Positions 3,345-28,298 of a DNA stretch of 64,000 nucleotides are shown in pieces; the stretch's first letter is position 1, and every line of letters begins with the position of its first letter. The DNA lies in contig JAZQBG010000004.1 of assembly GCA_045545595.1 (NCBI GenBank), positions 17,361 through 81,360 of the forward strand, given 5' to 3'. Position numbers and translations under genes: made by a program. Below the pieces are notes generated by a model that did no database searches, was not told the DNA's origin, and saw only the letters and a program-made list of their open reading frames with translations. The stretch comes from Bacilli bacterium. Lineage in GTDB: Bacteria > Bacillota_I > Bacilli_A > RF39 > UBA660.

Positions 3345-3373
3345 TAGAAACTTAAAAACAAATGTGCTATAAT
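3345..3373 (+). promoter_or_regulatory. sigmaA-type promoter with extended -10 (TGcTATAAT) ahead of the Tad-like module
   Basis: TAGAAA-17 bp-TATAAT with TG at -15/-14. The 17-mer TGTGCTATAATATTAAT recurs at 17291. Confidence 0.55.
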
Positions 3374-3400
3374 ATTAATATTAAGATAGGAGGAGTTAGT

Positions 3401-4288
3401 GTGAACAATTTTGGTGATACTTTAAAAAGAATTCTGACAAATAAAAATACTGTAACAATAATAGGGGTTTTAGTTGGGATAGCAGTTTTATATTTCGGAT
3501 ATACTTGGAGAATTAATCAACAAGTAGAACAAATAACAGTTTTAGCCGCTAAACAAGATATTCAACCAAGAACAAAAATTACTAGTGATATGGTTGAAAC
3601 AGTAAGTATAGCACGTGTTATGTATGATAAAATGATTGGAGATTATGGAGAGGGTGTTTCTGTATTAAGAAGTACGGCAGAACTTAGTACATTTACAGAC
3701 GGAGCATATTCTAATATAAATACATTGATTCCAGCGGGGACTCCACTTATAAGAAACACTAATGTTGTAGAAAGAAGTAAAATTCCTTCATCTGTATTAT
3801 TAAAAATTGATAAAGGACAAGTTCCTTATGCTTTCTCAATTAATTATAGTGACACATATGGTAATGCAATAATGGATGGTATGTATGTAAACATATATAT
3901 GAAAGCAGTAGATGATACAGGTAAAACTATGATTGGTAAATTATTACAAGATGTAAAAGTACTTGCAGTATTAGATTCAAGTGGTAGAGATGTGTTTGAA
4001 AATACCGCAGAAAGTAGAACGCCTTCAACATTTATTTTTAGTGTTGATGAAGATTTACACTTACTTCTTAGAAAAGCTAATTATTTATCAAGAAATGCAG
4101 TTGAACTTATTCCAGTACCAGTTACTGAATCTGTAAGTGATGAAGAATATGAAGGAACAGTTGAAATAACAAGTAGTTACTTAAGAGAATTTATAGAATC
4201 AAGAACAATTGATGTTCCATTAGATGAACTTCCAGAAAACGATACCCCTGAAATAGATTTAGAAACTGAAGAAAATCCAGAAGAATAA
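3401..4288 (+). CDS. CpaB/RcpC-like Flp pilus assembly protein (SAF domain)
   Basis: GTG start 7 nt after AGGAGG. N-terminal TM. SAF-like segment VLAAKQDIQPRTKITSDMVETVSI. Lies directly upstream of the TadA-like ATPase. Confidence 0.55.
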   Translation: MNNFGDTLKRILTNKNTVTIIGVLVGIAVLYFGYTWRINQQVEQITVLAAKQDIQPRTKITSDMVETVSIARVMYDKMIGDYGEGVSVLRSTAELSTFTDGAYSNINTLIPAGTPLIRNTNVVERSKIPSSVLLKIDKGQVPYAFSINYSDTYGNAIMDGMYVNIYMKAVDDTGKTMIGKLLQDVKVLAVLDSSGRDVFENTAESRTPSTFIFSVDEDLHLLLRKANYLSRNAVELIPVPVTESVSDEEYEGTVEITSSYLREFIESRTIDVPLDELPENDTPEIDLETEENPEE

Positions 4289-4290
4289 TT

Positions 4291-5427
4291 ATGGAAGATA
4301 ATATATTTTCACATATTGACTTTGGTCCATTACAAAAATATTTAGATAATGATGATGTTACAGATATTTCGTATAGTAATGGTGGTCAATTATGGATTAA
4401 ATCTCTTTCTCAAGGTGTGTATCGTGTAGAAGAAAAAGATATTAATAATGCATTAATGGAAAAAATTGCATTCCAATGTTCAAATGCAATGGGTAAAACA
4501 TTTAACATGGCTCAACCATTTTTGGATGCTGAAGGAGAAGAACTTCGTTTAAACTTCGTTCATGAATCCATTGCCAAAAATGGCATTGCTGCTGTATTAA
4601 GAAAAACACCAGCTAAGATAAGACTTGAAAAAGAAAAATTACTAAATGAGAATTATGTAACTCTAGATATACATGACTTTTTAATTGAATGTGTACTTGG
4701 ACACTGTAATATTATTGTAAGTGGTGAAACTGGTTCAGGTAAAACAGAATTTGTTAAATATTTAGCGGCTCATACAAGAGAAAATGAAAAAATAATCACA
4801 ATTGAAGACACTCTAGAACTTCATTTAGATAGAATATTTCCACATAGAGATATAGTTGCGATGAAAACAAATAATATTGCATCATACTCTGAAGTTCTAG
4901 TAACATGTATGAGACAAAATCCTAAGTGGATACTTTTATCAGAAGTCAGAAGTGCGGAAGCAGTTATGGCAGTTCGTAACTCAATATCTTCTGGTCACAA
5001 TATTTTGTCTACAATTCATGCTGATAAAGCGGAGTCTATCCCTACTAGAATGTACAGTTTACTTGAAACTAATATTGATATAAATCAATTTCTAGCTTCA
5101 ATACATAGATATGTTCAATTAGGAGTTCACATAAGAGGTTACTATTCTAAAGAATATAAACGTTTCCAAAGAGAAATTGTTGAAGTAACTGAATTTTTTG
5201 TTGATGACGAAAATAAACCTAAACATAATACAATTTATAGAAAAACTTCTGCTGGAAAGATTACAAGAAAAAATCCTACAAAGTATTTAATTGATTATTT
5301 GGATGCACAAGGAATAGTATTATCTAAATCCGGTATAGAAGAAGAAATTGGACAAGAAAATAATATACAAGAGAAGATTCAACATATAGAAATACCTGAT
5401 GAAGAAATAGAAGAAATAATTATATAG
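4291..5427 (+). CDS. tadA: CpaF/TadA-type secretion ATPase (T2SSE/VirB11 superfamily)
   Basis: Walker A GETGSGKTE, Asp box TIEDTLEL, Walker B WILLSEVR, His box GHNILSTIHA. Confidence 0.85.
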   Translation: MEDNIFSHIDFGPLQKYLDNDDVTDISYSNGGQLWIKSLSQGVYRVEEKDINNALMEKIAFQCSNAMGKTFNMAQPFLDAEGEELRLNFVHESIAKNGIAAVLRKTPAKIRLEKEKLLNENYVTLDIHDFLIECVLGHCNIIVSGETGSGKTEFVKYLAAHTRENEKIITIEDTLELHLDRIFPHRDIVAMKTNNIASYSEVLVTCMRQNPKWILLSEVRSAEAVMAVRNSISSGHNILSTIHADKAESIPTRMYSLLETNIDINQFLASIHRYVQLGVHIRGYYSKEYKRFQREIVEVTEFFVDDENKPKHNTIYRKTSAGKITRKNPTKYLIDYLDAQGIVLSKSGIEEEIGQENNIQEKIQHIEIPDEEIEEIII

Positions 5428-5444
5428 AGTAAGGCGGTGATGAT

Positions 5445-6347
5445 ATGAATTTTATTGTCTTTTTGATAGTTACGTTTATTGCTGTATTTATTGTTGCGTA
5501 TAGAGCAAAGAAGAACGAAAATGTATATAAATTTATATCTGATCAAGTTGGCACAGTCTATGAAAAATTCGCCCCTTATTCTTATAAAGAAATAAGAAAA
5601 AAAGTAAAAGGATTAAAAGCAGATTATACACCCAGACAATATATAACACAAATAATTATGTTTGCAGGAGTTGCAGGTGTAATTTCATACCTGTATTTCT
5701 ATAGTATAATCTGGTCATTAGTTTACGCATTGATTGCGGTAAGTATTATTCCTTATATTACTTACCTAAGATATAAAAAAGTTTATAGTGAGTTTATATT
5801 TGAACAAGTTCAAGTTTATGCTACAAACGTTATTATGGAATATCAAACGACAAAATCATTTGTTAAAGCACTTGAAGGAGTTTATAAATCAGGAGTATTA
5901 GAAGATCCAGTATTAACTGATGTTAAAATAATGCTTGATATGGCTTATGAAAGAGGACAAATTGATGATTCAATTGATTTCATGAATGAAAAATACCCAT
6001 ATCATATAGTTAAAAATCTACACCAATTATTTTTACAAGTTACCAAAGAAGGTGCGAGAGATATAACAGGATCACTTGATAATATGTCACTTGATATCGA
6101 TACACTTGTTGAAGGTGTATATCGTGATAGATTAGATAGGGAACAATTCCATAAGCAATTTATCATGTATGGATTAATGTTATATTTCCTAGTTGCTATT
6201 ATACAATTACTGTTAGGACAAGATTCTTATTTAAAAATGATAGAATTATGGTACATACAATTAGTATTGCATGCAATATTAATCTTTAATAGTTATTTTC
6301 TACTTAATGGTGAAAAATATTATAACGAGAATGTAGGTGGAGAATAA
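5445..6347 (+). CDS. TadB-like polytopic platform protein (T2SSF-like)
   Basis: Topology is TM - TM pair - about 125-aa helical cytosolic domain - C-terminal TMs. Located immediately after the ATPase. Confidence 0.5.
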   Translation: MNFIVFLIVTFIAVFIVAYRAKKNENVYKFISDQVGTVYEKFAPYSYKEIRKKVKGLKADYTPRQYITQIIMFAGVAGVISYLYFYSIIWSLVYALIAVSIIPYITYLRYKKVYSEFIFEQVQVYATNVIMEYQTTKSFVKALEGVYKSGVLEDPVLTDVKIMLDMAYERGQIDDSIDFMNEKYPYHIVKNLHQLFLQVTKEGARDITGSLDNMSLDIDTLVEGVYRDRLDREQFHKQFIMYGLMLYFLVAIIQLLLGQDSYLKMIELWYIQLVLHAILIFNSYFLLNGEKYYNENVGGE

Positions 6348-7144
6348 TGTGGGAATTATTAATATTAACAGTAATAATTATTGGTATACTATCAATAAAT
6401 GGTGTAATAGATAGCAAAGGATTCTTCCAGGATAATAGTGTATATTTAAAATTATTAAAAGAAGATGACTATGACTTTTTAGTACGTGCTAAATATGGAG
6501 ATAAAGTTGATCCAGAAGTATTATTTACAAAAAGAATAAAAAATGCTGCATTAATATTTGGTGTAATGATGATTTTATTCTTAACGGTTGAAGGAATCAA
6601 TACTTTTCTTAAAATTCTAATTTGTGTTGGAATAGCTATATTTATATTTAAATCGGGTTACTCAAACCTTAGAAGTTATTATAAAAAACATTTGCATGAT
6701 ATCGATTTATTACTTCCTTATTATTTAAAATCATTGGAAGTATTAGTTCAATACTATACAGTTCCTGTAGCAATTCAAAGATCAATAGATGAGGCTCCTG
6801 ATATATTTAAGCCAGGACTAAGGAATTTAACTAAGAAAATTGAACAAGGTGATTCTTCAATAGATCCATATATGGATTTTGCTAAAGAATATCCTGTTAG
6901 AGATTCTATGAGAATGATGAGATTACTTTATCGTCTTGGCTTAGGTTTACAAGAAAATAAAGAAGAACAATTATTACTACTTTCTAAAACAGTATCTAGT
7001 TTACAAAATAAAGCTAGAGAACAAAAATATAAAGAAAGATTAGAAAAAATGCAAAACAAAACTATGATAATGCTAGGTGTAACTGGAGCTGGTGTAATAG
7101 TATTGTTATTAGTATCAATGTTAATGCTTATGACAAATCTTTAA
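6347..7144 (+). CDS. TadC-like polytopic platform protein (T2SSF-like)
   Basis: Same topology as the previous ORF. ATGT overlap coupling. Segment DFAKEYPVRDSMRMMRLL resembles a T2SSF domain. Confidence 0.5.
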   Translation: MWELLILTVIIIGILSINGVIDSKGFFQDNSVYLKLLKEDDYDFLVRAKYGDKVDPEVLFTKRIKNAALIFGVMMILFLTVEGINTFLKILICVGIAIFIFKSGYSNLRSYYKKHLHDIDLLLPYYLKSLEVLVQYYTVPVAIQRSIDEAPDIFKPGLRNLTKKIEQGDSSIDPYMDFAKEYPVRDSMRMMRLLYRLGLGLQENKEEQLLLLSKTVSSLQNKAREQKYKERLEKMQNKTMIMLGVTGAGVIVLLLVSMLMLMTNL

Positions 7145-7160: not shown

Positions 7161-7189
7161 TTGAATAAAAAATATAAATAATATATAAT
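7161..7189 (+). promoter_or_regulatory. consensus-like promoter dedicated to the pilin gene
   Basis: TTGAAT-17 bp-TATAAT. AAGGAGG SD follows at 7211-7217. Confidence 0.6.
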
Positions 7190-7226: not shown

Positions 7227-7439
7227 ATGAAAGAAGCTACTGGAGAATTAAATATGACTGTTGTTACTGTTATAGCAATAGCTGCAATTGCTGGATTATT
7301 TTATGCATTTGTGTGGCCTATGATTCAGTCAGGTATAAAAAATAACACTTGTGCAACATTTGGTGAAGGATATACATATTCTGAAACAAATGGTACTAAT
7401 TGTGTATCATCAGGTGACGGGTTCTGTTGTGCACCATAA
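7227..7439 (+). CDS. small Flp/Tad-type pilin candidate (70 aa) with Cys-rich C-terminus
   Basis: Short charged leader MKEATG followed by a hydrophobic helix (ELNMTVVTVIAIAAIAGLFYAFVW). Four Cys in the tail. Has its own promoter and terminator. Confidence 0.5.
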   Translation: MKEATGELNMTVVTVIAIAAIAGLFYAFVWPMIQSGIKNNTCATFGEGYTYSETNGTNCVSSGDGFCCAP

Positions 7440-7455: not shown

Positions 7456-7482
7456 AACTTATCAAATTTGATAAGTTTTTTT
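7456..7482 (+). terminator. intrinsic terminator after the pilin gene
   Basis: Perfect 9-bp stem AACTTATCA/TGATAAGTT, 4-nt loop, T5 run. Confidence 0.8.
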
Positions 7483-7485
7483 ATT

Positions 7486-7548
7486 TTATCCACAAAATTG
7501 TTGATAAATAAAGTCTTTTGTTAAAGTTTTGTTGATATTATTAGTGAT
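7486..7548 (+). repeat. cassette-boundary composite repeat R1 (22-bp dyad + 41-bp constant block)
   Basis: TTATCCACAAAATTGTTGATAA, then ATAAAGTCTTTTGTTAAAGTTTTGTTGATATTATTAGTGAT. Similarity to R5 continues about 50 bp into the DUF1016 coding start. Confidence 0.9.
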
Positions 7549-7567
7549 AGTAATGGAGATGAAACTT

Positions 7568-8572
7568 ATGATAGAAAAAGATTTTAAAAATGTAATTACT
7601 GAGGTAAAAAAGCAAATTAGTAATACTAAAATAGAGATATTTCAAAATGCTAATATGAGCTTGTTGAAATTATATTATAATATTGGAAAGATTATTTATG
7701 ATAATTCAGAATGGGGAAATAAATTTATTGATGAACTTGCAGTTGAATTAAAAATATCGTTCCCAAATATCAAAGGATTTTCGGTTAGAAATCTTAAAAG
7801 TATGAAAAAATACTATTTGATTTGTAGTAGGAACGAAAAAGTGCAGACAGCATCTGCACTAATTCCATGGTCTCATAATATGCTTATTTTAGATAAAATA
7901 AAGGATGATAATAAAAGAATATGGTATATGAATGAAACTGCTATTAATGGTTGGAGTTATGATGTTCTTGGATTTCAAATAAAAAGTGATTTATATTCAA
8001 GACAAGTACTAGGAGATAAACCGAACAATTTTAAAACGACGTTAATAAATCCGCAAAGTGATTTAGCGAAAAATATGATGAAAGATCCATATATATTAAA
8101 TTTAACTGAATTAAATGAAGGTTATATTGAAATAGAGTTAGAGTTAGCTATGGTTGAAAAGATAAAAACAGTTTTATTAGAATTAGGTAATGGTTTTAGT
8201 TTTATTGGAAATCAATATAAAATAGAGGTTGGTAATAAAGATTATTATATAGATATGCTCTTTTATCATACAAAGTTACATTGTTATATTGTTGTTGAAT
8301 TAAAGAACACCGAATTTAAACCAGAATATGCAGGAAAGGTTAATTTTTATTTATCGGCGATTGATGCTTCATTAAAAGATGAAAATGATAATCCTAGTAT
8401 TGGTATTATATTATGTAGAGACAAAGATAAAATTTCAGTAGAATATTCACTTATGGATATAAGTAAACCGATAGGAGTAAGTTCATATGAATTATCAAAA
8501 TATTTGCCATCAGACATAATAAAAGAACTACCCACAGAAGAAGACTTAAATTTCCACGTGAATATTGAATAG
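7568..8572 (+). CDS. YhcG/DUF1016-family PD-(D/E)XK nuclease, paralogue 1 (intact)
   Basis: ATG 9 nt after GGAG. The longer TTG-start version is repeat sequence, not coding. Motifs IPWSHN, GWSYDVL, GNGFSFIGNQY and D...VVELK (D/ExK). Confidence 0.8.
   Translation: MIEKDFKNVITEVKKQISNTKIEIFQNANMSLLKLYYNIGKIIYDNSEWGNKFIDELAVELKISFPNIKGFSVRNLKSMKKYYLICSRNEKVQTASALIPWSHNMLILDKIKDDNKRIWYMNETAINGWSYDVLGFQIKSDLYSRQVLGDKPNNFKTTLINPQSDLAKNMMKDPYILNLTELNEGYIEIELELAMVEKIKTVLLELGNGFSFIGNQYKIEVGNKDYYIDMLFYHTKLHCYIVVELKNTEFKPEYAGKVNFYLSAIDASLKDENDNPSIGIILCRDKDKISVEYSLMDISKPIGVSSYELSKYLPSDIIKELPTEEDLNFHVNIE
7840..7860. repeat. intragenic hairpin in DUF1016 paralogue 1
   Basis: AGTGCAGA-cagca-TCTGCACT, an 8-bp stem ending 7 nt before the conserved Trp codon. 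Confidence 0.85.
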
Positions 8573-8604
8573 ATTAATTTAAAATATTTTTAGCCTAAAT
8601 GTAA

Positions 8605-8649
8605 ATAAATAAAGTCTTTTGTTAAAATTTTGTTGATATTATTAGTGAT
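8605..8649 (+). repeat. cassette-boundary repeat R2 (constant block intact, dyad degenerate)
   Basis: ATAAATAAAGTCTTTTGTTAAAATTTTGTTGATATTATTAGTGAT. The upstream dyad is reduced to TTAGCCTAAATGTAAATAA. Confidence 0.85.
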
Positions 8650-8683
8650 GATGTTTTTAATAATATGTGTTGGATTAAATTTA

Positions 8684-8712
8684 TTGTCATTAATATATTT
8701 TTATGCTATAGT
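8684..8712 (+). promoter_or_regulatory. cassette-internal promoter (extended -10)
   Basis: TTGTCA-17 bp-TATAGT with TGc upstream. The block TTTTTATGCTATAGTTTATGAGTGAGGTG is shared with the 9531-9557 leader. Confidence 0.55.
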
Positions 8713-8714
8713 TT

Positions 8715-8915
8715 ATGAGTGAGGTGAGGACTTTGAATAAAAGTTTTAAATTATATCTAAATCAAAATAGTAATAATATAGGCAAAATTAAAAATAATAT
8801 AAAAAAATTACATACAATCGATAAGGATCTTATACCACAATATTTAGATAGTCTTAAAGAAAATTTAAAAATTAAAGAGGTAAGTAAAAATAACGAATAT
8901 TTAAAATATATGTAA
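8715..8915 (+). CDS. small hypothetical protein (about 60-66 aa), first gene of a two-gene cassette
   Basis: ORF follows SD GAGGTGAGGA. The start could be ATG 8715 or the in-frame TTG 8733. Lys/Asn-rich. Confidence 0.4.
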   Translation: MSEVRTLNKSFKLYLNQNSNNIGKIKNNIKKLHTIDKDLIPQYLDSLKENLKIKEVSKNNEYLKYM

Positions 8916-8919
8916 ATTT

Positions 8920-9402
8920 ATGGAATACAGAACGGGTCAATTAATATGGCTTAAAAATATTGATAATTTTTCTGGTCATAAAGTTAAAGAGTCAAGACTA
9001 TGTATTGTTAGAAGAGTATATAACAATTATTTGATTGATTTAAGAACTTTATCAACTATATATTATGATAAAATCAATAAAATTCCAGCACGAAATCTAA
9101 AAGAGGCAAAAAAGGTATTACAAAATTTATTTGAAACGAAAATTAGAGAATCTGGGCAATATGTTATATTTGAACCCGAAAAAGATAATACTATAAATTT
9201 TTCTTTTGCTTTTGGTAATATGATTTCAAAAAAAGTTAATCTTTCAGAGTTTGAGCATGAACCATTATTGGATAAAAATAAAAATCCATTGTTTGTGTCA
9301 GAAGAAAAGGAACTTGAATTATCTTTAAGAGAAGCAGAAGCTATTGCTAAAGATATTGTATATTATTTTAAAATTTCATCAAAGCAATTACAAACTAACT
9401 AA
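8920..9402 (+). CDS. hypothetical protein (160 aa) with possible PemK/MazF-like SH3-barrel N-terminus
   Basis: Begins 4 nt after the upstream stop. N-terminus TGQLIWLKNIDNFSGHKVKESRLCIVRR loosely resembles the GDIxxVxF...RPxLV pattern of MazF-fold toxins. Confidence 0.3.
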   Translation: MEYRTGQLIWLKNIDNFSGHKVKESRLCIVRRVYNNYLIDLRTLSTIYYDKINKIPARNLKEAKKVLQNLFETKIRESGQYVIFEPEKDNTINFSFAFGNMISKKVNLSEFEHEPLLDKNKNPLFVSEEKELELSLREAEAIAKDIVYYFKISSKQLQTN

Positions 9403-9439
9403 AATCAAGTATTTGCAATTTAAATGCTTGATTTTTATT

Positions 9440-9500
9440 TTATCCACAAAATTGTTGATAATTAAAGTCTTTTGTTAAATTTTTGTTGATATTATAAGTG
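9440..9500 (+). repeat. cassette-boundary composite repeat R3
   Basis: TTATCCACAAAATTGTTGATAA, then TTAAAGTCTTTTGTTAAATTTTTGTTGATATTATAAGTG. Preceded by a hairpin plus T-run (9405-9435). Confidence 0.9.
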
Positions 9501-9516
9501 AACACTTATTCCTGTG

Positions 9517-9545
9517 TTGTTTTTCACTTGTTTTTATGATATAGT
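9517..9545 (+). promoter_or_regulatory. cassette-internal promoter (extended -10)
   Basis: TTGTTT-17 bp-TATAGT with TGa upstream. Homologous to the 8684-8712 promoter/leader. Confidence 0.5.
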
Positions 9546-9554
9546 TTATGTGAG

Positions 9555-9734
9555 GTGGAATGGTATGGGGTTATTAAAAAAGTTGCCGGAAGGATTTATA
9601 AAAAAAATAGAATCAAAGTTTCTTCTAGGAAAAATATTGATGATGAAATAATACCAATAAAATGGTCCAAAGATGTCATAAGTGGAAATAAAAAAGCAAT
9701 TGTTAAGTTGGCTAAAGAAGCAAGGAATAAGTAG
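9555..9734 (+). CDS. small basic hypothetical protein (59 aa, GTG start), antitoxin-like position
   Basis: Frame open from GTG 9555 to TAG 9732-9734 (...IPIKWSKDVISGNKKAIVKLAKEARNK). Below the ORF-track size cutoff. Weak SD. Confidence 0.3.
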   Translation: MEWYGVIKKVAGRIYKKNRIKVSSRKNIDDEIIPIKWSKDVISGNKKAIVKLAKEARNK

Positions 9735-9777
9735 TTAGTTTTTAATTACTTATTTTTATTATGTCAGGAGGAATTAT

Positions 9778-10065
9778 ATGTGTAAAATAGGAGATATAAT
9801 TGTAATTAAAAGTTATATTGGTGATGATAGTAAAGTAATTACACAACATTCTTTTATAGTAATTGATGATACACCAAGTCAAATTGGTGGATTAAATTAT
9901 GATTTAGTAACAAATGTTATGTCTAGTCTTAAAAATGAAAAGCATAGAGCAAAAAAATTAAAATTTAAAGAAAATATAGAAATTAAAAGTGATGATCTTA
10001 TCTCTATTTATAAGAATAATAAAATTAGTGATGATATACTTATGGGAGGAGTTAAATGTGAATAA
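9778..10065 (+). CDS. hypothetical protein (95 aa), possible PemK/MazF-fold toxin-like protein
   Basis: SD AGGAGG at 9766-9771. N-terminus KIGDIIVIKSYIGDDSKVITQHSFIVID resembles the MazF/PemK N-terminal strand pattern. Overlaps the next gene start (GTGA). Confidence 0.35.
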   Translation: MCKIGDIIVIKSYIGDDSKVITQHSFIVIDDTPSQIGGLNYDLVTNVMSSLKNEKHRAKKLKFKENIEIKSDDLISIYKNNKISDDILMGGVKCE

Positions 10066-10987: not shown

Positions 10988-11001
10988 GTAATCAATTTTT
11001 T

Positions 11002-11064: not shown

Positions 11065-11096
11065 GATATTTTAATTATTATTGTAATATTTAAATA

Positions 11097-11122: not shown

Positions 11123-11124
11123 AG

Positions 11125-11995: not shown

Positions 11996-12042
11996 AATAA
12001 ATTGACTTTATTAAAATATTTATTAGATTGGAGGGTTAGAAA

Positions 12043-20989: not shown

Positions 20990-21310
20990 ATGATTAGTGG
21001 TGGATATTTAATACCGGCCAATTCAAAAAAAGGACAATTAATACTAAATTATTTTAGGCTAGTAGATTTATTAATATTTGGAATAGGATTATTAGTGTCG
21101 TTTCTATTGTTGATAATTTTTGGTACTGGTGGTATTGCGCAAACACTTGGTATATTAGCACCTGCTGCACTTGGTGCACTTCTTGTTGCGCCAGTTCCAA
21201 ACTATCATAATGTTTTGGTTTTCATAACTAGTTTATATGAATATTTAAACAATAGAAGAAATTATATATGGAAAGGTTGGTGTGTTACTAATGGCGAAGA
21301 CAAACAGTAA
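20990..21310 (+). CDS. PrgI/VirB3-like small membrane protein
   Basis: 106 aa with two TM helices. Its position immediately before VirB4, overlapping its start, is typical of Gram-positive T4SS. Confidence 0.55.
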   Translation: MISGGYLIPANSKKGQLILNYFRLVDLLIFGIGLLVSFLLLIIFGTGGIAQTLGILAPAALGALLVAPVPNYHNVLVFITSLYEYLNNRRNYIWKGWCVTNGEDKQ

Positions 21311-21836
21311 ATATACAGAAGATTGGTTGCCTATTAATTCCATAATGAATGGAATGATAATTTTAGATAATAAATGGAAGGTGACAGGTGTAAAAATAAA
21401 TCCTAGAAACATATTCATATTAGAACCGTCCGCACAAGATGCAACTTTAATAGCACTTAAAAATTTATATAATATGTTGGATTTTGAATTTTGGATTGTT
21501 TCTGCAGATAGACCTGTTGATATTTCACTTTACTTATCACAGTTACAACTTTTGTATAGCCAAACACAAAAACAATATGTTAGAAAATTAATCATGGAAG
21601 ATATTAATAAAGCTAACATGTATACTGCAAATAATGTGGTTGATACTGAATATTATTTGTTATTTAGAGAAAAGAATGATGATTTAATTCAAAAGAGAAT
21701 AAGATTATTAATTAATAATTTAGCGAATTGTGGATTAAGTGCCGCCCAAACTTCAAATGAGGATTTAAGAGTTCTATTAGAAAACTTCTTAAATGGTGGA
21801 CAAACCACTGGATTTGGAGCAGTGATGCCAGTATGA
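21291..21836 (+). CDS. VirB4-family ATPase, N-terminal domain encoded as a separate ORF
   Basis: Segment DWLPINSIMNGMIILDNKWKVTGVKINPRNIFIL resembles the N-terminus of Gram-positive VirB4 (PrgJ/TcpF/CD1110-type). Ends at a TGA that overlaps the next ATG. Confidence 0.55.
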   Translation: MAKTNSKYTEDWLPINSIMNGMIILDNKWKVTGVKINPRNIFILEPSAQDATLIALKNLYNMLDFEFWIVSADRPVDISLYLSQLQLLYSQTQKQYVRKLIMEDINKANMYTANNVVDTEYYLLFREKNDDLIQKRIRLLINNLANCGLSAAQTSNEDLRVLLENFLNGGQTTGFGAVMPV

Positions 21837-23617
21837 AAATAAAAAGCGAATTAGCCCCTAAGGGATTACAATTTAACTCAGGTGATTTTGTTATTAGTGA
21901 TAAATATGCAACGATTTTAACTGCTGTATCTTATCCTAAATTTATACAACCAGGATATTTAGCAAGTTTAACAAATATGTCTGGTATTAAAATGGTTATT
22001 AAACATATACCATTGCCGTTTTCAGTTATTTCTAAAATGCTTAATAAAGAAATTGCGGATTTAAAACAAAAATATCATGAAGAAAATGATAAAACTATTC
22101 AAGAAAGAATAAGACAAGATATTGATTCACTAGAATATTTTATTCAAATGATGGTATCTTCTCAAGCAAGAATTTTTGACTTTCAACTACACATAATGAT
22201 TACCGCTGATACAAGAGAAGCATTAGAAAATAAAAAAGTTCAAGTTAAAAATTATCTTGAAGCTATGGAAATGAGATCTGTTGTACTTAGATTTGAACAG
22301 GAAAAAGTATTAAAATCAATACTTCCTATTTTCCCTAATCAAGATATAGAACAAAGAATTGGTACACCAGTTCCATCAGTTACTATGGCGGCTATGTATC
22401 CATTTATATTTGATAGTGTTAAGGATCCCGGATTATCTTGTTTATTAGGTGTGGATTTTTCGGGAGGGGTTATACTATTTAACCAATTCCTATATCAAAT
22501 TAAAAAGGAACATAATAGAAATAATGCTAATTTAATTATTTTAGGTACATCAGGTAGTGGTAAGAGTACAACTGCTAAGATTATACTTAGATCTCATATC
22601 AGGAATGATGCACAAATTGTTGCAATAGACCCTGAAGATGAATTAAGTGAAATGGGTAAAACATTTGGTGCTGATATGATTGACCTTGGAAAAGGTGGAC
22701 AATTTGGTATGATAAATCCACTTGAAGTAATAGTTGATGCTGATGAAGAAGAATTATCTCAAGGATTAGGATATACTGTTCTTAATAAAACATTACAATT
22801 CTTAAAAGCGTTTATGAGATATTATTCGCCAGATATTAGCGAAGATGTATTAACTACTTTTAGTGAAGTTGTACAAGATACATATAAGAGATTTGGAATA
22901 GATTTTGACACTGATTTTTCTAAATTCACATCAAAAGATTTTCCAGTATTTGCAGATGTGTATGAAACTATTAAAGGTAGATTATTATCTATGAACGAAA
23001 AAACTCGTGAAAGAGACATTATGGAACAGCTTGAGATAAAAGTTAGACCATTAGTAAAAGAATTAAGATACTATTTTGGTGGTCATACAACTATAAAAAG
23101 AGACTCTCAATTCATTATATTCAATTTAAAAGAACTTATGAATTCAGATAATAATATTAGAAACGCATTATTCTTTAATGTATTAAAATATGCGTGGGGA
23201 TTATGTTTAGATAAAGACAAAAATACCGTATTGTCAGTCGATGAAGCCCATATTTTATTGTCTGGTAATAACGTATTAGGTGCGGATTTCTTAGCGCAAG
23301 TTCAAAGAAGGGCTAGAAAGTATAATACTGGTACAATAATAAGTACACAACAACCAACAGATTTCTCTGACCCTGCTGTCATTACTCAAGGTAAAGCAAT
23401 ATTTGATAATGCTGCTTATTACATAGTAATGGGACTTAGAAAACAAGCAACAGAAGATTTAGCTAAATTAATTGATTTAAATGATAATGAAAAAGATAAT
23501 ATTAAGAGATTTAATCAAGGAGAAGCATTGTTTGTTTGTGGTAACAGACGTATGATAATAAATATTATTGCTTCTGAAAAAGAATTAGACTCATTTGGAA
23601 GTGGCGGCGGTCTATAA
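21833..23617 (+). CDS. VirB4-family conjugation/secretion ATPase, middle and ATPase domains
   Basis: Walker A GTSGSGKST, Walker B LSVDEAH, and SYPKFIQPGYL typical of the VirB4 middle domain. Confidence 0.8.
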   Translation: MKIKSELAPKGLQFNSGDFVISDKYATILTAVSYPKFIQPGYLASLTNMSGIKMVIKHIPLPFSVISKMLNKEIADLKQKYHEENDKTIQERIRQDIDSLEYFIQMMVSSQARIFDFQLHIMITADTREALENKKVQVKNYLEAMEMRSVVLRFEQEKVLKSILPIFPNQDIEQRIGTPVPSVTMAAMYPFIFDSVKDPGLSCLLGVDFSGGVILFNQFLYQIKKEHNRNNANLIILGTSGSGKSTTAKIILRSHIRNDAQIVAIDPEDELSEMGKTFGADMIDLGKGGQFGMINPLEVIVDADEEELSQGLGYTVLNKTLQFLKAFMRYYSPDISEDVLTTFSEVVQDTYKRFGIDFDTDFSKFTSKDFPVFADVYETIKGRLLSMNEKTRERDIMEQLEIKVRPLVKELRYYFGGHTTIKRDSQFIIFNLKELMNSDNNIRNALFFNVLKYAWGLCLDKDKNTVLSVDEAHILLSGNNVLGADFLAQVQRRARKYNTGTIISTQQPTDFSDPAVITQGKAIFDNAAYYIVMGLRKQATEDLAKLIDLNDNEKDNIKRFNQGEALFVCGNRRMIINIIASEKELDSFGSGGGL

Positions 23618-23639: not shown

Positions 23640-25367
23640 ATGTGGGGTGCAGTAGCAAAGCAATTATTAAGTAACCCAAAGACTCGTAAAATTATAATAA
23701 TAGCAGCAGTGGGATTACTAGGATTTCAATTTTTGTTCATGTTTTTAATAATATGTGCAGTTGCATATCCAATTTTTGCAGTCGGAGAATTTATACAAAA
23801 CTTTGTAAGTGCAGTCGAAGATTTTTTCCAAAGATTTGGCAATTTTATAACATTTAATGGATGGAAAACTAATGAAGAAAAATATTTTGAGTTTATGGAG
23901 GAATTATCATGTGAAAATGCCACGATTATTTCTTCAACAGTAATGTATTATTACAATATAGGACAATTTGAATCTGAAGAAATGTCAGATGAAGAGTGGG
24001 AAAATTATGATCCATCTACATCAAATGGTGATGATGATCTTCCATATGGAGATTTATTAAAAGATGCAAAAAAACTTAATAAGTACTATAAAAAAGGAAT
24101 GACTGAATACGAAACATATGTAAAAACAAAATTTATACCTAGCTATGACAAGAATGCAAATGTTGATTCTATATATGATGCTATGATGACTATTGCAAAA
24201 ACTGGTAATTGTAGTAAGGGTTCTTCCTCCGGTAGTTCTGGATTTTATAGTGTAACCTGTTCGGGTGTTACTGTAACAGGTGAGGGAGCAGGAACATATC
24301 AACTAGAAGATTATGTTGCTGGTGTTGTTGATGCAGAGGTAGGAGTTTTTGGGGAAAGTGCAGAAACTTTGAAGGCACAGGCAATCGCTGCTAGAACTTA
24401 TGTTTTGAATACAACAAATAATTGTGCAAATCCAATAAATAATTCAACTACAGCACAAACTTTTTCTCCTAATCCATCTGAGGCAGCTAAACAAGCTGCT
24501 AATGAAACCGCGGGTAAGGTTTTAACATTTAATGGTTCTATATTTAAATCTGAATATGACTCGTTTTGTTCAAACTGCGATAGTACTACAACAAACGAGG
24601 ATGGTTCATATACAGCGCAATATACAAAACTTCCTAATAATGAAACACATTCAGTTACACTTGGTAGTTCATATGCTAGTTATATTGCCGGTGGACATGG
24701 TAGAGGTATGAGTCAAGTGTTAGCGTATCAACTTGCTAATGAAGGTAAAACTTATGCTGAAATTTTGGAATACTTTTACTCGCCAGGTGTTGTAATTGCT
24801 AATTCAGGTGGTTTTAGTACTGGTGGATGGACAATTAGAAATACAACACCAACAAAAAGTGATACATTATATACAGGGTATGCGAATGTTGGTCAATGTG
24901 TATGGTATGCAAAATCCCGTGCTATGGAAATATTAACAGAACTTAAAAATGCTGGTAAAATAGATTCTGAACAAGCAGATAAGGCTATTCAATCTTTAAA
25001 TTCAACATATGGTAATGCAACAGACTGGTATAAAAATACATCAGATAAATTTAATAAAATTTCTGATATAACTAAACCTCAAGCTGGTTCAATAATTGTA
25101 TGGTCTGGCGGAAATGGTCATAACTATGGTCATGTAGCTATTATCGAAGAAATTAATACAGAGGAAAACACTATAACGGTAACAGATACATGGTCTAATT
25201 TGAGAGATGGTAATGGTAATATAGATTCATGTCCTGGTACATGGACTTGTATAGTGTTTAATAGTAAGACATACTCATTAGATGATTTTATTAATAATTA
25301 TGCACCACATGGTGGAGGATATAAGAGGTTTGTAGGTTATGTTAATTTTGTAAATAGTGAATTTTAG
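23640..25367 (+). CDS. bifunctional cell-wall hydrolase (SpoIID/LytB-like + CHAP), VirB1/PrgK/TcpG analogue
   Basis: N-terminal TM. SpoIID motif LKAQAIAARTYVL. CHAP Cys in GQCVWYAKSRA and His in GHVAIIEEI. Confidence 0.75.
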   Translation: MWGAVAKQLLSNPKTRKIIIIAAVGLLGFQFLFMFLIICAVAYPIFAVGEFIQNFVSAVEDFFQRFGNFITFNGWKTNEEKYFEFMEELSCENATIISSTVMYYYNIGQFESEEMSDEEWENYDPSTSNGDDDLPYGDLLKDAKKLNKYYKKGMTEYETYVKTKFIPSYDKNANVDSIYDAMMTIAKTGNCSKGSSSGSSGFYSVTCSGVTVTGEGAGTYQLEDYVAGVVDAEVGVFGESAETLKAQAIAARTYVLNTTNNCANPINNSTTAQTFSPNPSEAAKQAANETAGKVLTFNGSIFKSEYDSFCSNCDSTTTNEDGSYTAQYTKLPNNETHSVTLGSSYASYIAGGHGRGMSQVLAYQLANEGKTYAEILEYFYSPGVVIANSGGFSTGGWTIRNTTPTKSDTLYTGYANVGQCVWYAKSRAMEILTELKNAGKIDSEQADKAIQSLNSTYGNATDWYKNTSDKFNKISDITKPQAGSIIVWSGGNGHNYGHVAIIEEINTEENTITVTDTWSNLRDGNGNIDSCPGTWTCIVFNSKTYSLDDFINNYAPHGGGYKRFVGYVNFVNSEF

Positions 25368-25376
25368 GTGATAATA

Positions 25377-26048
25377 ATGAATAATAAAATATTTGTTTTA
25401 GCCATAGTTATGTTATTTATAACCGGCTGTACTGTTACTTACGATTTAAATATTGAAGATAGTAAAGTATATGAAAAAGTAAATTTAAATGTTGATTCAA
25501 CATTTAATTCAAGAATTTCAGAGTTATCAAAAATGAAACAATATAACCATCTTTCTGGAAATAATACCACTTATTATAATTTTTCTTCTGCTGAGAGTGA
25601 TAGTGGGGTTAAACTTTCATATGATTATCAGTATAATTTTGAAAATTTTGAAGAATCACGTGCATTAAGTGAATGTTTTTCTGCTTTTAATGTATTAAAT
25701 GATTATGAAGAAGAAACTCTTAGAATTACTACATCAAACAAATTTAATTGTCTTAATTATAATGATGAATTTGTTGATAGTGTGACAATAAATATTAAAA
25801 CAAATCATAAAGTAATTAATCATAATGCTGATAAAGTTGAAAATGATACTTATACTTGGGAAATAAAATCAAGTATGCTAGATAAGCCTATTGATTTTAC
25901 AATTGATAGAAATCCTAAGGATACAACTGTAGAAGATACTATAAGAGATGTTGGTACACTTTTGATAGTTATTGGTATAGTTGCAGGCATTGGTGTTATT
26001 GTACTTATTTACTTAAAAATAAGATCTAAAAATGTAAATAAAATTTAA
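25377..26048 (+). CDS. lipoprotein with C-terminal TM anchor (T4SS accessory, function unknown)
   Basis: Lipobox LFITGC. C-terminal TM LLIVIGIVAGIGVIVLIYL. Confidence 0.5.
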   Translation: MNNKIFVLAIVMLFITGCTVTYDLNIEDSKVYEKVNLNVDSTFNSRISELSKMKQYNHLSGNNTTYYNFSSAESDSGVKLSYDYQYNFENFEESRALSECFSAFNVLNDYEEETLRITTSNKFNCLNYNDEFVDSVTINIKTNHKVINHNADKVENDTYTWEIKSSMLDKPIDFTIDRNPKDTTVEDTIRDVGTLLIVIGIVAGIGVIVLIYLKIRSKNVNKI

Positions 26049-26080
26049 ATCATAAATATTGAAATATTTATGATTTTTTC
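26048..26080 (+). terminator. intrinsic terminator before the coupling-protein gene
   Basis: 13-bp AT-rich stem AATCATAAATATT/AATATTTATGATT plus a T-run. An extended -10 TGaTATAAT follows at 26090-26098. Confidence 0.6.
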
Positions 26081-26140
26081 TTTAATACGTGATATAATAT
26101 TTTTGAATTAATTAAATTATTCTTACAGGAGGAAATTTTT

Positions 26141-28219
26141 ATGAAATTAAAATTTACTGCAAATAAAGAAGATTGGATAATCTTTATATTGATGTTAATA
26201 TTGATGTTATATTTAGTAGCGATAGCTGTATTAAACTTTTCAGTTTTTGCTCATACTGGATCATTCCATGGTTTAAACCCAATACCGGCATTTACTAATC
26301 CAGATTATTTAATGCCAACTTTAGTATTTTACATAATAATTATCTTAGTTGGTTTTGGTAGTGTAAATTCATACTTTTTTGATAGGGAAAAAGGTACTGG
26401 TTTTTCAACAACAAAAAGTGATAAAGGATATTCAAGATGGTCTAAGCCAGAAGAAATCAAAGGTGAATTAAAACCAGTTAATCCAACTGCACATACTAGT
26501 GAATATGCTGGTATTCCAATTATTAATGATGGTAAAACTGTATGGGTAGATAACGGTGAATATCATAACCTTATTATAGGGTCCACTGGTTCAGGTAAAA
26601 CACAATTAATTGTTTTTCCAATGGTTAACGTTTTAGCTAAAAAAGGTGAATCTATGATTATTACCGACCCCAAAGGTGAAATCTATGATGCAACTGCCAA
26701 TATGTTAAAAGAACGTGGTTATAAAATTATCGTTTTAAATTTACGTGATCCTCAAAGAGGTAATGCATGGAATCCATTCCAAATGCCTTACAAACTATAT
26801 AAAAGTGGTAACGGTGACAAATCAACAGAGTTACTTGACGACTTAGCAATCAATATTCTATATGATGAAAAAAGTCAAAGTAATGACCCATTCTGGGAAA
26901 AGACATCTGCAGACTACTTTACTGGTTTATCATTAGGTATGTTTGAAGATGCTGATGAGAGTAAAATCAACTTAAATACAATAAATTACATGAGTACTGT
27001 AGGAGAAGATAAGTTTGGTGGCTCTACATATATAAAAGAATACTTTAATATGAAAGATCCAACAAAACCGGCATATATAAATGCTTCCAGTACAATTAAT
27101 GCACCTACTGAAACTAAAGGTGGAATTCTTTCTGTATTTAGACAAAAGATTAAATTATTTTCTTCTAAAGAAAATTTATCAGAAATGTTAAGTCATAGTG
27201 ACTTTGATATGCAAGATATAGGAAAACAAAAAACTGCTGTTTTCATTATCATCCAAGATGAAAAGAAAACATATCATCCACTTGCAACAATATTCCTAAA
27301 ACAAGTATATGAAACATTAATCGATGTTGCACAAGAAAACGGTGGAAAACTTCCTGTTAGAACTAACTTTATTCTTGATGAGTTTGCGAACATGCCACCA
27401 CTAAAAGATGTTACAACAATGATTACTGCAGCTCGTTCTAGACAAATAAGATTTAACTTCATAATACAAAACTTTGCGCAATTAACGCAAGTTTACGGTA
27501 AAGAAAATGCAGAAACAATTAGAGGTAACTGTGGTAACACAATATATTTAATAAGTACAGAGTTACAAGCTCTTGAAGAAATAAGTAAATTATGTGGGGA
27601 AGTTAAATCTAAAGAAAAAGAAAAAACAAGTTCAACACCATTAGTTACTGTAAGTGACTTACAAAGAATGAAGAAGTTCGAAATGATAGTATTAAGACTT
27701 CGTAAATTCCCATTCAAAACTAAAATGACTCCACAATTCCAAATGAATTGGGGACCTCAAGACACATCAAAAGCTGAACTTCCTACTAGAGAAAGAAAAG
27801 CTGTGGAAGTATTTGACTTAAAAGAATTTGTGAAGGAAAAGAAAAAAAGTAATTTATTTAACATATTAGAAGGTTCAAATGGTGGAGGACCAGATATTCC
27901 AGCTGCTCCATTTAATCCATTTGCGATGCCTTCAGCTGACAATAACGATTTTAATGTTGATGACTTAGTTAAGAAAATCGATGCTAAAATTGCTGAGTTG
28001 GAAGAGGAAGAAAGAAGAGAAAAAGAAAAACTCGAAAAGGAAAAACAAGCTAATAAATCAAATATTATATCTGACAATGATATAACACCTCAAGTTTTAG
28101 AAGTAGCAGAGAATAAGACAACAAATGTTAACAAACCAATAGTTAAAGAAGAAATTAATAATCAAGAAGAAGATATTAGTGATGATCAATTCTTCGATGA
28201 TTTCTTTGCTGATGAATAA
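26141..28219 (+). CDS. VirD4/TraG-type type IV coupling protein
   Basis: Two N-terminal TM helices. Walker A GSTGSGKTQ, TDPKGE, Walker B-like NFILDEFAN. Acidic C-terminal tail. Confidence 0.8.
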   Translation: MKLKFTANKEDWIIFILMLILMLYLVAIAVLNFSVFAHTGSFHGLNPIPAFTNPDYLMPTLVFYIIIILVGFGSVNSYFFDREKGTGFSTTKSDKGYSRWSKPEEIKGELKPVNPTAHTSEYAGIPIINDGKTVWVDNGEYHNLIIGSTGSGKTQLIVFPMVNVLAKKGESMIITDPKGEIYDATANMLKERGYKIIVLNLRDPQRGNAWNPFQMPYKLYKSGNGDKSTELLDDLAINILYDEKSQSNDPFWEKTSADYFTGLSLGMFEDADESKINLNTINYMSTVGEDKFGGSTYIKEYFNMKDPTKPAYINASSTINAPTETKGGILSVFRQKIKLFSSKENLSEMLSHSDFDMQDIGKQKTAVFIIIQDEKKTYHPLATIFLKQVYETLIDVAQENGGKLPVRTNFILDEFANMPPLKDVTTMITAARSRQIRFNFIIQNFAQLTQVYGKENAETIRGNCGNTIYLISTELQALEEISKLCGEVKSKEKEKTSSTPLVTVSDLQRMKKFEMIVLRLRKFPFKTKMTPQFQMNWGPQDTSKAELPTRERKAVEVFDLKEFVKEKKKSNLFNILEGSNGGGPDIPAAPFNPFAMPSADNNDFNVDDLVKKIDAKIAELEEEERREKEKLEKEKQANKSNIISDNDITPQVLEVAENKTTNVNKPIVKEEINNQEEDISDDQFFDDFFADE

Positions 28220-28260
28220 TAAAATTTATAAAAAGTATAGATTTTGTAAAATTTAAAGTA

Positions 28261-28298
28261 AAAGATTACAGATAGTAAAATTGTCTGTAATCTTTTTA
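28261..28298 (+). terminator. intrinsic terminator ending the T4SS module
   Basis: 12-bp stem AAAGATTACAGA/TCTGTAATCTTT followed by T-rich sequence. Confidence 0.75.

Follow-up and report, generated by a model that had tools for sequence, protein, structure and literature searches.

The window considered here is a stretch of 64,000 nucleotides (64 kb) from a Bacilli genome (GTDB lineage RF39, UBA660; contig JAZQBG010000004.1), with a G+C content of about 25%. It carries trmL, yunB, yutD and genes for a VanY-like peptidase and addAB-like helicase-nucleases, and because of these housekeeping and sporulation genes it is taken to be the chromosome of a spore-forming Firmicute. Between positions 3401 and 28219 lies a gene cluster in which components resembling those of Tad-type pili are followed by components of a Gram-positive type IV secretion system (T4SS). 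Judging from homology and synteny, we believe, with a probability of roughly 0.6, that this region encodes one conserved and chromosomally fixed composite envelope machine made of two sub-assemblies. The machine occupies about 17 kb, or 25 kb in the window when an 8-kb insertion is counted. The + strand holds every substantial open reading frame (ORF) from 3362/3401 to 28219, and the minus-strand ORFs in the interval 3401-28219 are short and nested within + strand genes. The cluster ORFs are all intact, their catalytic motifs are present, and housekeeping genes border the cluster on either side. The genes of the putative machine are the following.

3401-4288, + strand: CpaB/RcpC-like protein; the ORF opens at 3362 and the likely start is GTG at 3401
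4291-5427, + strand: secretion ATPase of the TadA/CpaF/VirB11 family, with Walker A, Walker B and His box intact
5445-6347, + strand: TM1, TadB-like inner-membrane platform protein of 300 aa, called from hhalign comparisons
6347-7144, + strand: TM2, TadC/TadB-like inner-membrane platform protein of 265 aa, likewise called from hhalign
7227-7439, + strand: pilin-like protein of 70 aa, with a short polar leader, one transmembrane (TM) helix and a Cys-rich tail
15798-16265, + strand: p155, minor-pilin-like protein of 155 aa, DUF4320-like, homologue of pLS20 gene 40
16298-17290, + strand: p330, conserved protein of 330 aa, 46-84% identical in relatives
17329-17790, + strand: VirB2-like T4SS pilin a; the ORF opens at 17290
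17876-19054, + strand: VirB2-like pilin b, with an N-terminal extracellular domain of about 300 aa
19083-20969, + strand: VirB6-like polytopic channel protein, similar to a family of Mycoplasma integrative and conjugative elements (ICEs)
20990-21310, + strand: VirB3-like small membrane protein, called by size and position, with a weak TcpE match (E 0.012)
21282-21836, + strand: VirB4 N-terminal TraC-like domain, a separate ORF of about 184 aa matching VirB4_plasma positions 99-276 (E 1.1e-15)
21833-23617, + strand: VirB4 ATPase of 594 aa; VirB4_plasma 342.7 bits (E 3e-102)
23640-25367, + strand: SpoIID + CHAP peptidoglycan hydrolase; CHAP 60.9 bits and SpoIID 51.7 bits, both above cut-off
25368-26048, + strand: lipoprotein-like protein with a lipobox-like signal (…LFITGC) and a C-terminal hydrophobic TM helix
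26141-28219, + strand: VirD4 coupling protein of the CD1115 family; Pfam T4SS-DNA_transf 199 bits

For the first half of the cluster the most fitting description appears to be a type IV filament module of a divergent Tad-like kind, and neither a canonical tad locus nor a lone VirB11. On the explanation that we consider best, its parts would be a CpaB-like protein on the wall or periplasm side, a hexameric ATPase of the TadA/VirB11 family, TadB-like and TadC-like platform proteins, the 70-aa protein as major pilin and p155 as minor pilin. The second sub-assembly would be a T4SS resembling the mating-pair formation class MPF_FATA, with two VirB2-like proteins, VirB6, VirB3, a two-piece VirB4, the hydrolase, the lipoprotein and VirD4.

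The CpaB-like protein matches TIGR03177 (E 6.4e-9, 35 bits against a cut-off of 71) and Pfam RcpC (E 4e-5, 23.9 bits against 28.8), in both cases below the cut-off. Its orthologues at loci L003-L005 have a recorded match to PF16976, and identity among relatives is 36-88%. The ATPase clears the gathering score of Pfam T2SSE with ease (94.6 bits against 24.9). In NCBIfam it ranks highest as VirB11 (112.8 bits), followed by TadA-conjugal (100.5) and TrbB (99.9), all of which are far below their cut-offs; for the P-type VirB11 model, TIGR02788, the equivalog cut-off is 249.95. Against solved structures CpaF is the best match (70.5 bits), ahead of VirB11 (59) and FlaI (56.5). In tblastn searches of plasmids the top matches are pLS20-family Bacillus plasmids and a Paraclostridium plasmid, the identity to pLS20 gene 37 and to the Paraclostridium plasmid ATPases being 33-34%. 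Alphaproteobacterial CpaF (E 2e-19) scores above most VirB11 (best 5e-17, over 39% of the query) and TrbB (1e-10 or weaker). The family of the ATPase is not assignable from such scores alone, and it is the neighbouring genes that would decide. The first-pass annotation of this DNA had allowed that the ATPase might simply be the VirB11 of the T4SS. A lone VirB11 it does not appear to be, since a CpaB-like protein, two TadB/TadC-like platform proteins and pilin-like proteins accompany it; what stands of that caution is that VirB11 tops the NCBIfam ranking, below cut-off.

TM1 and TM2 are polytopic, and neither window protein matches a Pfam family. For hhalign, the TM2 profile came from the diverse family recovered by exhaustive HMMER search (693 representatives at E ≤ 0.001), the TM1 profile was widened by adding plasmid homologues, and the template comprised six annotated TadB and TadC proteins from S. 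meliloti pSymA, a Pseudosulfitobacter plasmid and a Rhodococcus plasmid. The TM2 family aligns with TadB/TadC at 91.6% probability (E 8.3e-7) over 195 columns spanning the T2SSF domain. TM1 aligns with TadB/TadC at 81.6% (E 1.1e-5), and with the TadB subset only at 75%. For comparison, TadB against TadC as positive control reaches 96.3%, whereas p155, p330, reversed templates and the polytopic VirB6 family, which served as negative controls, stay at 0.1-2.7%. By these comparisons TM1 and TM2 are homologues, remote ones, of TadB and TadC, the single-domain platform proteins of the GspF/T2SSF fold. Among remote TM2 relatives T2SSF is the Pfam family most often matched, tied with YqzE (3/41 each, best E 0.003), and some remote relatives are fused TM1-TM2 proteins of 486-613 aa (P0361, P0371, P0389) that recall the two-domain PilC/GspF. 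Paralogy of TM1 and TM2 was not seen when they were compared by hhalign with shallow alignments. An apparent paralogy in the diverse-set alignment was rejected, because the TM1 profile there mostly aligns with the N-terminal half of the fused proteins and thus reports the fusion. A weak cross-match of the TM2 profile hidden Markov model (HMM) to pLS20 gene 38 (1.3e-5) hints at paralogy. Comparison of PDB sequences with the profile HMMs of TM1 and TM2 gave nothing significant.

The pilin-like family begins with MKEA[T/A]GE[L/A/V][N/S]xT… followed by the TM helix; MKEA[T/A]GE is invariant, and the C-terminus is variable and often Cys-rich. The p155 family has the leader M[R/K][E/D][A/S]xG and an N-terminal TM helix, and so resembles it. 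A common leader is as expected for a major pilin and a minor one cut by a single peptidase. The p155 profile matches a 120-aa protein of pXO2 (2.7e-8) and the DUF4320 protein of pHT73 (3e-5), and in a Pfam scan of the family DUF4320 is found in 4/43 members and the Tad (TadE/G-like) family, not significantly (E 0.25), in 2/43. The first-pass annotation had called p155 TadE-like; its pilin-resembling leader agrees with this, but the family to which it belongs is DUF4320-like and pLS20-gene-40-like, and there is no significant TadE/G-like match. The TadZ-like call made for p330 could not be verified. The p330 family has no PDB or Pfam match and no ParA match of note, and a TadZ/CpaE set aligns with it by hhalign at only 13%, in 31 columns located at a deviant stretch resembling Walker A. 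Canonical type IV pilin N-termini (KGFTLIE…) flank the Tad-like module in several relatives (L003 3714-5240 and 12244-13158, L004 17041-17592, L009 3704-4078, L080 and L081), and both L003 proteins tested are above the cut-off of Pfam N_methyl; a regular-expression search for such N-termini found none in the window. The presence of canonical GFTLxE pilins close to the locus in some relatives implies a prepilin peptidase gene elsewhere in those genomes.

In the T4SS half, VirB2-like pilin a scores 24.9 bits with Pfam T4SS_pilin, below the cut-off of 26.6, and weakly matches the NCBIfam Mbov_0395 pilin-like family. In VirB2-like pilin b the T4SS_pilin match lies at residues 310-375 (E 0.0018, 18.8 bits, also below 26.6), and the hairpin of the family is kept in relatives, whose genomes carry 2-5 copies of VirB2-like genes. 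The VirB6-like protein matches Mbov_0396 (E 1.4e-9) and MMCAP2_0566 (2.6e-8) in NCBIfam, below cut-off, and by blastp a pLS20_p028-family protein of a Paraclostridium plasmid (5.8e-7). The size of the VirB3-like protein and its position immediately before VirB4 are kept in relatives. The VirB4 ATPase also matches the CD1110 family (167 bits, E 4e-49) and, above the gathering score, Pfam AAA_10 (43.2 bits), and it is 68-79% identical in relatives; orthologues of the N-terminal ORF belong to the TraC-like PF26593. The two-ORF VirB4 with overlapping stop and start codons recurs in many related species, so the split is taken to be native and not a frameshift. VirD4 reaches 316 bits with NF045973, whose cut-off is 250. 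The lipoprotein-like protein has no family match in Pfam or NCBIfam, and a protein of similar size lies at the same position in relatives. By these matches the components that define the MPF_FATA type are present, namely VirB4, VirD4, the hydrolase and VirB6-like and VirB3-like proteins, and the relaxase is missing from the window. The catalytic domains of the wall hydrolase are swapped between genomes: SpoIID + CHAP in the window, SpoIID + M23 in L097 (6968-9196) and M23 alone in L095 (6195-8483).

The conservation of the cluster was followed by searching with the ATPase through a single genome for each GTDB species; the 80 best loci, at 71-93% identity, were taken with 10-kb flanks. Close relatives of the ATPase are present in at least 561 species-representative genomes, one of them on a circular 1.2-Mb contig. 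Seventeen of the 80 loci are not assessable, their contigs ending too early. In 55 of the 63 assessable loci (87%), genes for VirB2-like, VirB6, VirB3 and VirB4 proteins lie directly downstream in the same order and orientation, and in most loci the first VirB2-like gene lies 3.2-5.5 kb away from the ATPase; the other 8 have no T4SS genes within 10 kb. Between the two parts are the genes for p155 and p330, which in most cases accompany the T4SS. The linkage of the two modules is genuine. The single co-oriented supercluster from 3401 to 28219 that was initially described therefore stands, all real genes being on the + strand and 55/63 relatives being alike. Of the two findings named at the outset as telling against it, adjacency of the modules in this genome only is contradicted by the 87% of assessable relatives that keep it. 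As to the other, failure of the Tad-like calls at HMM thresholds, the ATPase passes with T2SSE, and CpaB-like, T2SSF and TadE/G-like matches fall below their cut-offs, the platform proteins being seen by hhalign. Both having been tested, neither refutes the linkage outright, and the supercluster is likely to be linked functionally.

The Tad-like core also stands alone. On Faecisoma-like contigs (L003-L005) it consists of DUF5411, CpaB, ATPase, TM1, TM2 and pilin genes, is flanked by large N_methyl proteins and has no T4SS nearby. The occurrence of the core without a T4SS implies that the filament plays, or is able to play, some part independent of the T4SS. Ahead of the CpaB-like gene, L003-L008 carry a DUF5411 gene and two or three large proteins; they are missing in the window and, to judge by the position of the flanking genes, in L009. 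TM1, TM2 and VirD4 each have thousands of metagenome homologues at 60-90% identity, the few source names of which read 'Bacilli', 'Firmicutes/Bacillota', 'Clostridiales', 'Mollicutes' and 'Candidatus Faecisoma'. In comparison with the closest genome (L009), the motors are strongly conserved (ATPase 93%, TM1 90%, VirB4 N-terminal ORF 89%, against 95% for TrmL), whereas the predicted surface parts are not (pilin 55%, VirB2-like 47-61%, VirB6 42%). Such fast divergence of exposed parts suggests diversifying pressure.

The surroundings of the cluster point the same way as its distribution. On the left, vanY, trmL and a thioredoxin-like lipoprotein gene (trx) are syntenic in close relatives, and trmL is within a few kb of the locus in many more distant relatives too. 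On the right, VirD4 is the final cluster gene in relatives and is followed directly by yunB, DUF4015 and yutD in the closest genome (L097) and by RmuC, RNase R and SmpB in another lineage. No integrase was found in the window or in the relatives' flanks, and nucleotide searches of both halves against plasmids gave no match. By its flanks, distribution and conservation the locus appears to be vertically inherited, chromosomal and under constraint, and not a recent mobile island; a mobile ICE was rejected on synteny and distribution.

Within the cluster, promoter-like sites and an insertion were also noted.

3345-3373, + strand: promoter-like site, TAGAAA-17-TATAAT with TG, upstream of the CpaB-like gene; consensus match only
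7161-7189, + strand: promoter-like site before the pilin-like gene, 81% similar over 36 nt to a stretch upstream of 15798
7478-15700, + strand: cassette insertion within the module, not a part of the machine; repeat-bounded, about 8 kb
17273-17301, + strand: promoter-like site, TTCAAA-17-TATAAT with TG, before the T4SS module; consensus match only

The sites at 3345-3373 and 17273-17301 have the core TG(C/T)TATAATATTAAT in common, which bears out the earlier remark that the two modules share a promoter core, as far as a promoter-like core goes; the sites are consensus matches within an AT-rich genome and not proof of promoters. The positions of the core make GTG 3401 and ATG 17329 the likely true starts. 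The insertion lies between the pilin-like and the minor-pilin-like genes and contains six copies of a repeat of about 70 nt, 0.85-2 kb apart, each of which precedes a cassette gene and contains the palindrome ATCCACAAAATTGTGGAT followed by the promoter-like AAAGTCTTTTGTTAAAATTTTGTTGATATTATTAGTGA. The cassette genes encode DUF1016/YhcG PD-(D/E)XK nuclease paralogs, several of them truncated or frameshifted. A cassette protein (12043-12945) resembles a KilA-N protein encoded at 46699-47571, and broken cassette genes at 14205-15653 look Schlafen/AlbA-like by eye. The core of the repeat was found nowhere else in the window or in any fetched locus. The insertion is absent at the corresponding position in the nearest relative (L009), and several relatives have other inserts of 3-5 kb where the window has the cassette array.

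The system most like the window is found in the conjugation operons of Bacillus plasmids of the pLS20/pXO2/pAW63 class (MPF_FATA), pAW63 being a conjugative relative of pXO2. HMM and blast comparisons link the window ATPase, TM1, TM2, p155, VirB6, VirB4 and VirD4 to operons of the pLS20/pXO2 class, with which the window is nearly collinear. In pLS20 the order is gene 36, the ATPase gene 37, membrane protein genes 38 and 39, gene 40 for a 120-aa protein with an N-terminal TM helix, gene 41 for a 47-aa protein with one TM helix, small proteins, VirD4, VirB6, a VirB3-like protein, VirB4 and a hydrolase; its VirD4 belongs to the CD1115 family, as does that of the window, and its VirB6 to the pLS20_p028 family, which the VirB6-like protein of the window matches. 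The build of pXO2 is the same, and its small proteins include one annotated as TrbC/VirB2 family. The TM2 profile matches pLS20 gene 39 (1e-13) and proteins of pXO2 (3.5e-13), Paraclostridium (2.4e-12), Lactococcus pJM1A (7.6e-8) and a 297-aa protein of pHT73 (4.6e-19); the TM1 profile matches a 315-aa protein of pHT73 (3.2e-17), pXO2 (8.9e-5) and pLS20 gene 38 (8e-3). Homology to the plasmid operons thus extends to pLS20 genes 38, 39 and 40 with their pXO2 counterparts and, in pHT73 and Lactococcus pJM1A, to the proteins that correspond to TM1/TM2 and p155. The pLS20-class operons differ in being plasmid-borne, in having a MobP relaxase, an adhesin and quorum-sensing control, in lacking the CpaB-like gene and p330, and in that VirD4 precedes VirB6. 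The window locus, unlike them, is chromosomal and vertically inherited, has no relaxase, and has a split VirB4 and a different small pilin family. By homology, then, the locus is a chromosomal, relaxase-less relative of the pLS20/pXO2-class conjugation operons. Among the small proteins, pLS20 gene 45 (76 aa; L002 15412-15642, in the pLS20-family plasmid pNARUSE) looks by eye like a VirB2/TrbC-like two-helix hairpin, and its pXO2 counterpart (L094 17610-17888) is annotated as TrbC/VirB2 family. A 2021 paper on the pLS20 family, in contrast, states that no VirB2 homologue is encoded by these plasmids.

A second plasmid class, pHT73/pE81-53 of the B. cereus group, pHT73 being a conjugative Cry plasmid, carries DUF5411, a 263-aa protein, an AAA ATPase, a T2SSE ATPase, membrane proteins of 315 and 297 aa, a small TM protein and DUF4320. 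As in the window, the module is upstream of a T4SS and co-oriented with it. Unlike in the window, the T4SS is of the Tcp type (TcpC/D/E and an FtsK-like coupling protein), a relaxase is present, the locus is plasmid-borne and DUF5411 lies upstream. Tad-like modules thus appear to be paired recurrently with Gram-positive T4SS of at least two types, on plasmids whose conjugation is documented (PMC9673590). The first-pass annotation had regarded the combination as an unusual hybrid, which it is not in Firmicutes, where pLS20, pXO2 and pHT73 have homologous modules beside T4SS genes. In pLS20 and pAW63 the ATPase has been named VirB11 and its neighbours 'unknown', and Gram-positive elements are said to form no pili (PMC8557374, PMC1196294). 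According to a review of December 2025, the T4SS of Gram-positive bacteria 'universally lack VirB11 homologs' (PMC12857230), and reviews describe these systems as having no VirB11 and using adhesins instead of pili (PMC12857230, PMC8557374). In the literature outside subscription journals we found no identification of TadB/TadC-like platform proteins in these conjugation operons. Our comparisons suggest, at odds with current reviews, that an ATPase, a TadB/TadC-like platform and pilin-like subunits are a recurrent conserved neighbour of Gram-positive T4SS genes. The architecture is already present, mislabelled, in well-known conjugative plasmids of Bacillus; the chromosomal relaxase-less form is new.

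Other systems resemble one half or the other. Classical Tad systems are the Cpa system of Caulobacter and the Tad system of Aggregatibacter. Tad/Flp (type IVc) loci such as the cpa locus of S. meliloti pSymA combine a CpaB-like protein and a CpaF-like ATPase with a pair of single-domain platform paralogs, and encode a very small pilin whose leader recurs in the minor pilins. In contrast to them, the window has no Flp G/XXXXEY motif, no locus prepilin peptidase and no secretin (as expected in a monoderm), and its matches to Tad proteins are remote and below curated cut-offs. Mycoplasma ICEs are mobile and use a DDE transposase; to our knowledge they have neither a canonical relaxase nor a Tad-like module. 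Their T4SS families (Mbov_0395/0396/0397) are the best NCBIfam matches for the window VirB4 (342.7 bits), VirB6-like and VirB2-like proteins, all below equivalog cut-offs. The chromosomal T4SS of Patescibacteria belong to reduced genomes, are mostly without relaxase and MPF_FATA-like, and have VirB2-like paralogs as well as type IV pili for partner contact (PMC12102498, PMC12857230), but they are from a different phylum, no fused Tad-like/T4SS locus has been described in them, and host dependence is unproven for the Bacilli clade. In IncI1 R64 (thin pilus) and P. aeruginosa PAPI-1 a type IV pilus promotes or is required for mating (PMC12857230). Type IV filament genes are associated there, as in the window, with VirB4/VirD4-type transfer; those pili, however, are type IVb, come from diderms and are built from unrelated gene sets, and in the window the coupling is a proposed one. 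On a linear plasmid of Cutibacterium acnes a Gram-positive tad locus adjoins VirB4, TcpC and FtsK-like genes, and the authors left open a link between Flp pili and conjugation (PMC5696575). That locus is actinobacterial and plasmid-borne and, unlike the window, is a canonical tad locus with recognisable TadE and Flp.

Several observations weigh against reading the region as one machine with a filament-building half. TM1 and TM2 do not reach the gathering score of T2SSF (PF00482), the platform homology being remote, and their AlphaFold2 models (from 40-42 sequences of 60-90% identity) are of low confidence (predicted local distance difference test about 66, predicted template modelling score 0.36-0.40), Foldseek searches of PDB returning only noise (E > 2); for these reasons the fold evidence is void rather than negative. 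The ATPase scores about equally as VirB11, TadA and TrbB in NCBIfam. In the pilin-like family the Flp G/XXXXEY motif is absent and there is no E5/Y6 at the N-terminus; its HMM matches no known pilin profile, neither Flp (L090, L091) nor pLS20 gene 41 nor the 48-aa protein of pXO2. No prepilin peptidase (A24, TadV/CpaA) was found among the scanned genes of the 64-kb window, nor among upstream genes in relatives. The module is interrupted by the 8-kb insertion, which might hamper expression of what lies downstream of it, the two modules appear to have separate promoter-like sites, and the Tad-like core occurs without T4SS in 8/63 loci and at L003-L005. Against membership of the conjugative T4SS, in particular, speaks the absence of a relaxase, which was found neither among the genes of the window nor within 10 kb downstream of VirD4 in relatives; because of this absence 'conjugation' is not established for the system.

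Part of this evidence could instead mean that the two halves are neighbours by descent, a Tad-like pilus for adhesion or DNA uptake beside a separate T4SS, with no functional coupling. Each half has its own promoter-like site, the five-gene core is found alone in L003-L005 and 8/63 loci, flanked by N_methyl pilin-like proteins, Firmicute Tad-like operons with DUF5411 and no T4SS have been described (PMC9523054; in that study, based on natural language processing, DUF5411/CpaF/PilC operons in Clostridia were predicted to be secretion-related), and on different plasmids the module is paired with different T4SS types. We nevertheless consider such independence unlikely. In 87% of assessable species, with ATPase identities of 71-93%, the genes keep their order, orientation and close spacing, and the proteins encoded between the parts (p155 and p330) are mostly found together with the T4SS. 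At least three plasmid lineages, whose T4SS types differ, also show the pairing, a recurrence that is difficult to account for unless linkage is selected. Somewhat less probable again is that the ATPase is the plain VirB11 of the T4SS, its membrane neighbours being T4SS-specific inner-membrane parts and no type IV filament being made. The top NCBIfam score (VirB11, 112.8 bits), the name used in the pLS20/pAW63 literature (PMC8557374, PMC1196294), the embedding of the plasmid modules in conjugation operons and the failure of the pilin-like protein to match any pilin profile fit this view. However, that score is far below 249.95, CpaF is the best match among solved structures, TM1 and TM2 align with TadB/TadC where controls fail, a CpaB/RcpC-like gene precedes the ATPase, and the core is found without a nearby T4SS. 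Nor do we know of a canonical VirB11 in VirB/D4 systems that partners with platform proteins of the GspF/TadB type.

It is very improbable that the cluster is a decaying ICE that has lost its relaxase and integrase and whose genes are becoming pseudogenes. A relaxase and an integrase are indeed missing from the window and the relatives' flanks, TnpB and Bro-N genes follow VirD4, an 8-kb cassette array sits within the module and VirB4 is in two pieces; but the ORFs are intact with catalytic motifs present, the VirB4 split is kept with its overlapping stop and start codons in many species, and hundreds of species carry the cluster in a syntenic position of the chromosome, its motors being conserved to a housekeeping level. 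A DNA-uptake system of the ComB/Ced type was considered, against which the presence of VirD4 argues for export. The ATPase also matches SpoIIIAA weakly (E 0.015) and spore genes flank the locus, but a SpoIIIA-like sporulation channel was rejected; the gene set, VirB4 and VirD4 do not fit it.

If the region is a composite machine of a Tad-like filament module and a T4SS, it might work as follows. The hydrolase would open the wall. The ATPase and platform would extract the small pilin from the membrane and polymerise it into a short filament, the minor pilin priming the assembly. The filament would reach or hold a partner cell, as the type IV pili of R64 and PAPI-1 do for their T4SS; alternatively, it might keep a passage open across the thick wall, standing in for the VirB7/9/10 core, which is missing. 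VirD4 would then pass the substrate to a channel of VirB4, VirB6 and VirB3. The substrate could be chromosomal DNA nicked by an unlinked or unrecognised enzyme, or proteins; it is not assignable in this lineage because no relaxase is linked and the cluster is vertically inherited. What the comparisons show is the gene content, remote homologies, conserved synteny, fixation in the chromosome and homology to the plasmid operons; that a filament is formed, that the halves are coupled physically or functionally, and that the function is that of a contact pilus or a wall conduit for transfer, we infer, as we do the substrate. The pilus-assisted mating or effector delivery proposed in the first-pass annotation is kept as a hypothesis.

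More broadly, the type IV filament (Tad-like) sub-assembly might belong to a major class of Gram-positive T4SS (pLS20, pXO2/pAW63, pHT73 and the window system) as an ancestral and integral component, building a contact pilus or a wall-spanning pseudopilus, and the machine might have been domesticated without relaxase in small-genome gut Bacilli. This is a tentative proposal, and one that we regard as possible but doubtful. If true, it would overturn the textbook view that monoderm T4SS have neither VirB11-type ATPases nor pili, and the domesticated machine could serve relaxase-independent exchange of chromosomal DNA, like chromosomal transfer in Mycoplasma, or a partner- or host-dependent lifestyle as proposed for the T4SS of Patescibacteria. 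The textbook statement on Gram-positive T4SS becomes directly testable, with pLS20 as a tractable system. A very widespread clade of uncultured gut bacteria with genomes of about 1.2 Mb keeps the machine at housekeeping-level constraint while its surface parts diversify fast, and conserved motors with fast surface parts are the pattern usual for structures in contact with other cells, phages or the host. Should the machine move DNA or protein, it would bear on gene flow and dependencies among uncultured gut bacteria.

Two observations concern the DNA downstream of the cluster. At 28525-30648 an IS605-type TnpB gene and a Bro-N domain gene lie between VirD4 and yunB, unlike in the closest relative (L097). 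Farther on, at 36267-43034, a tRNA-His gene is followed by genes for a serine recombinase (36923-38149), an intact DUF1016/YhcG nuclease (38757-39767) and a Shedu SduA-like protein (41841-43034), and this segment is probably an integrated defence island.

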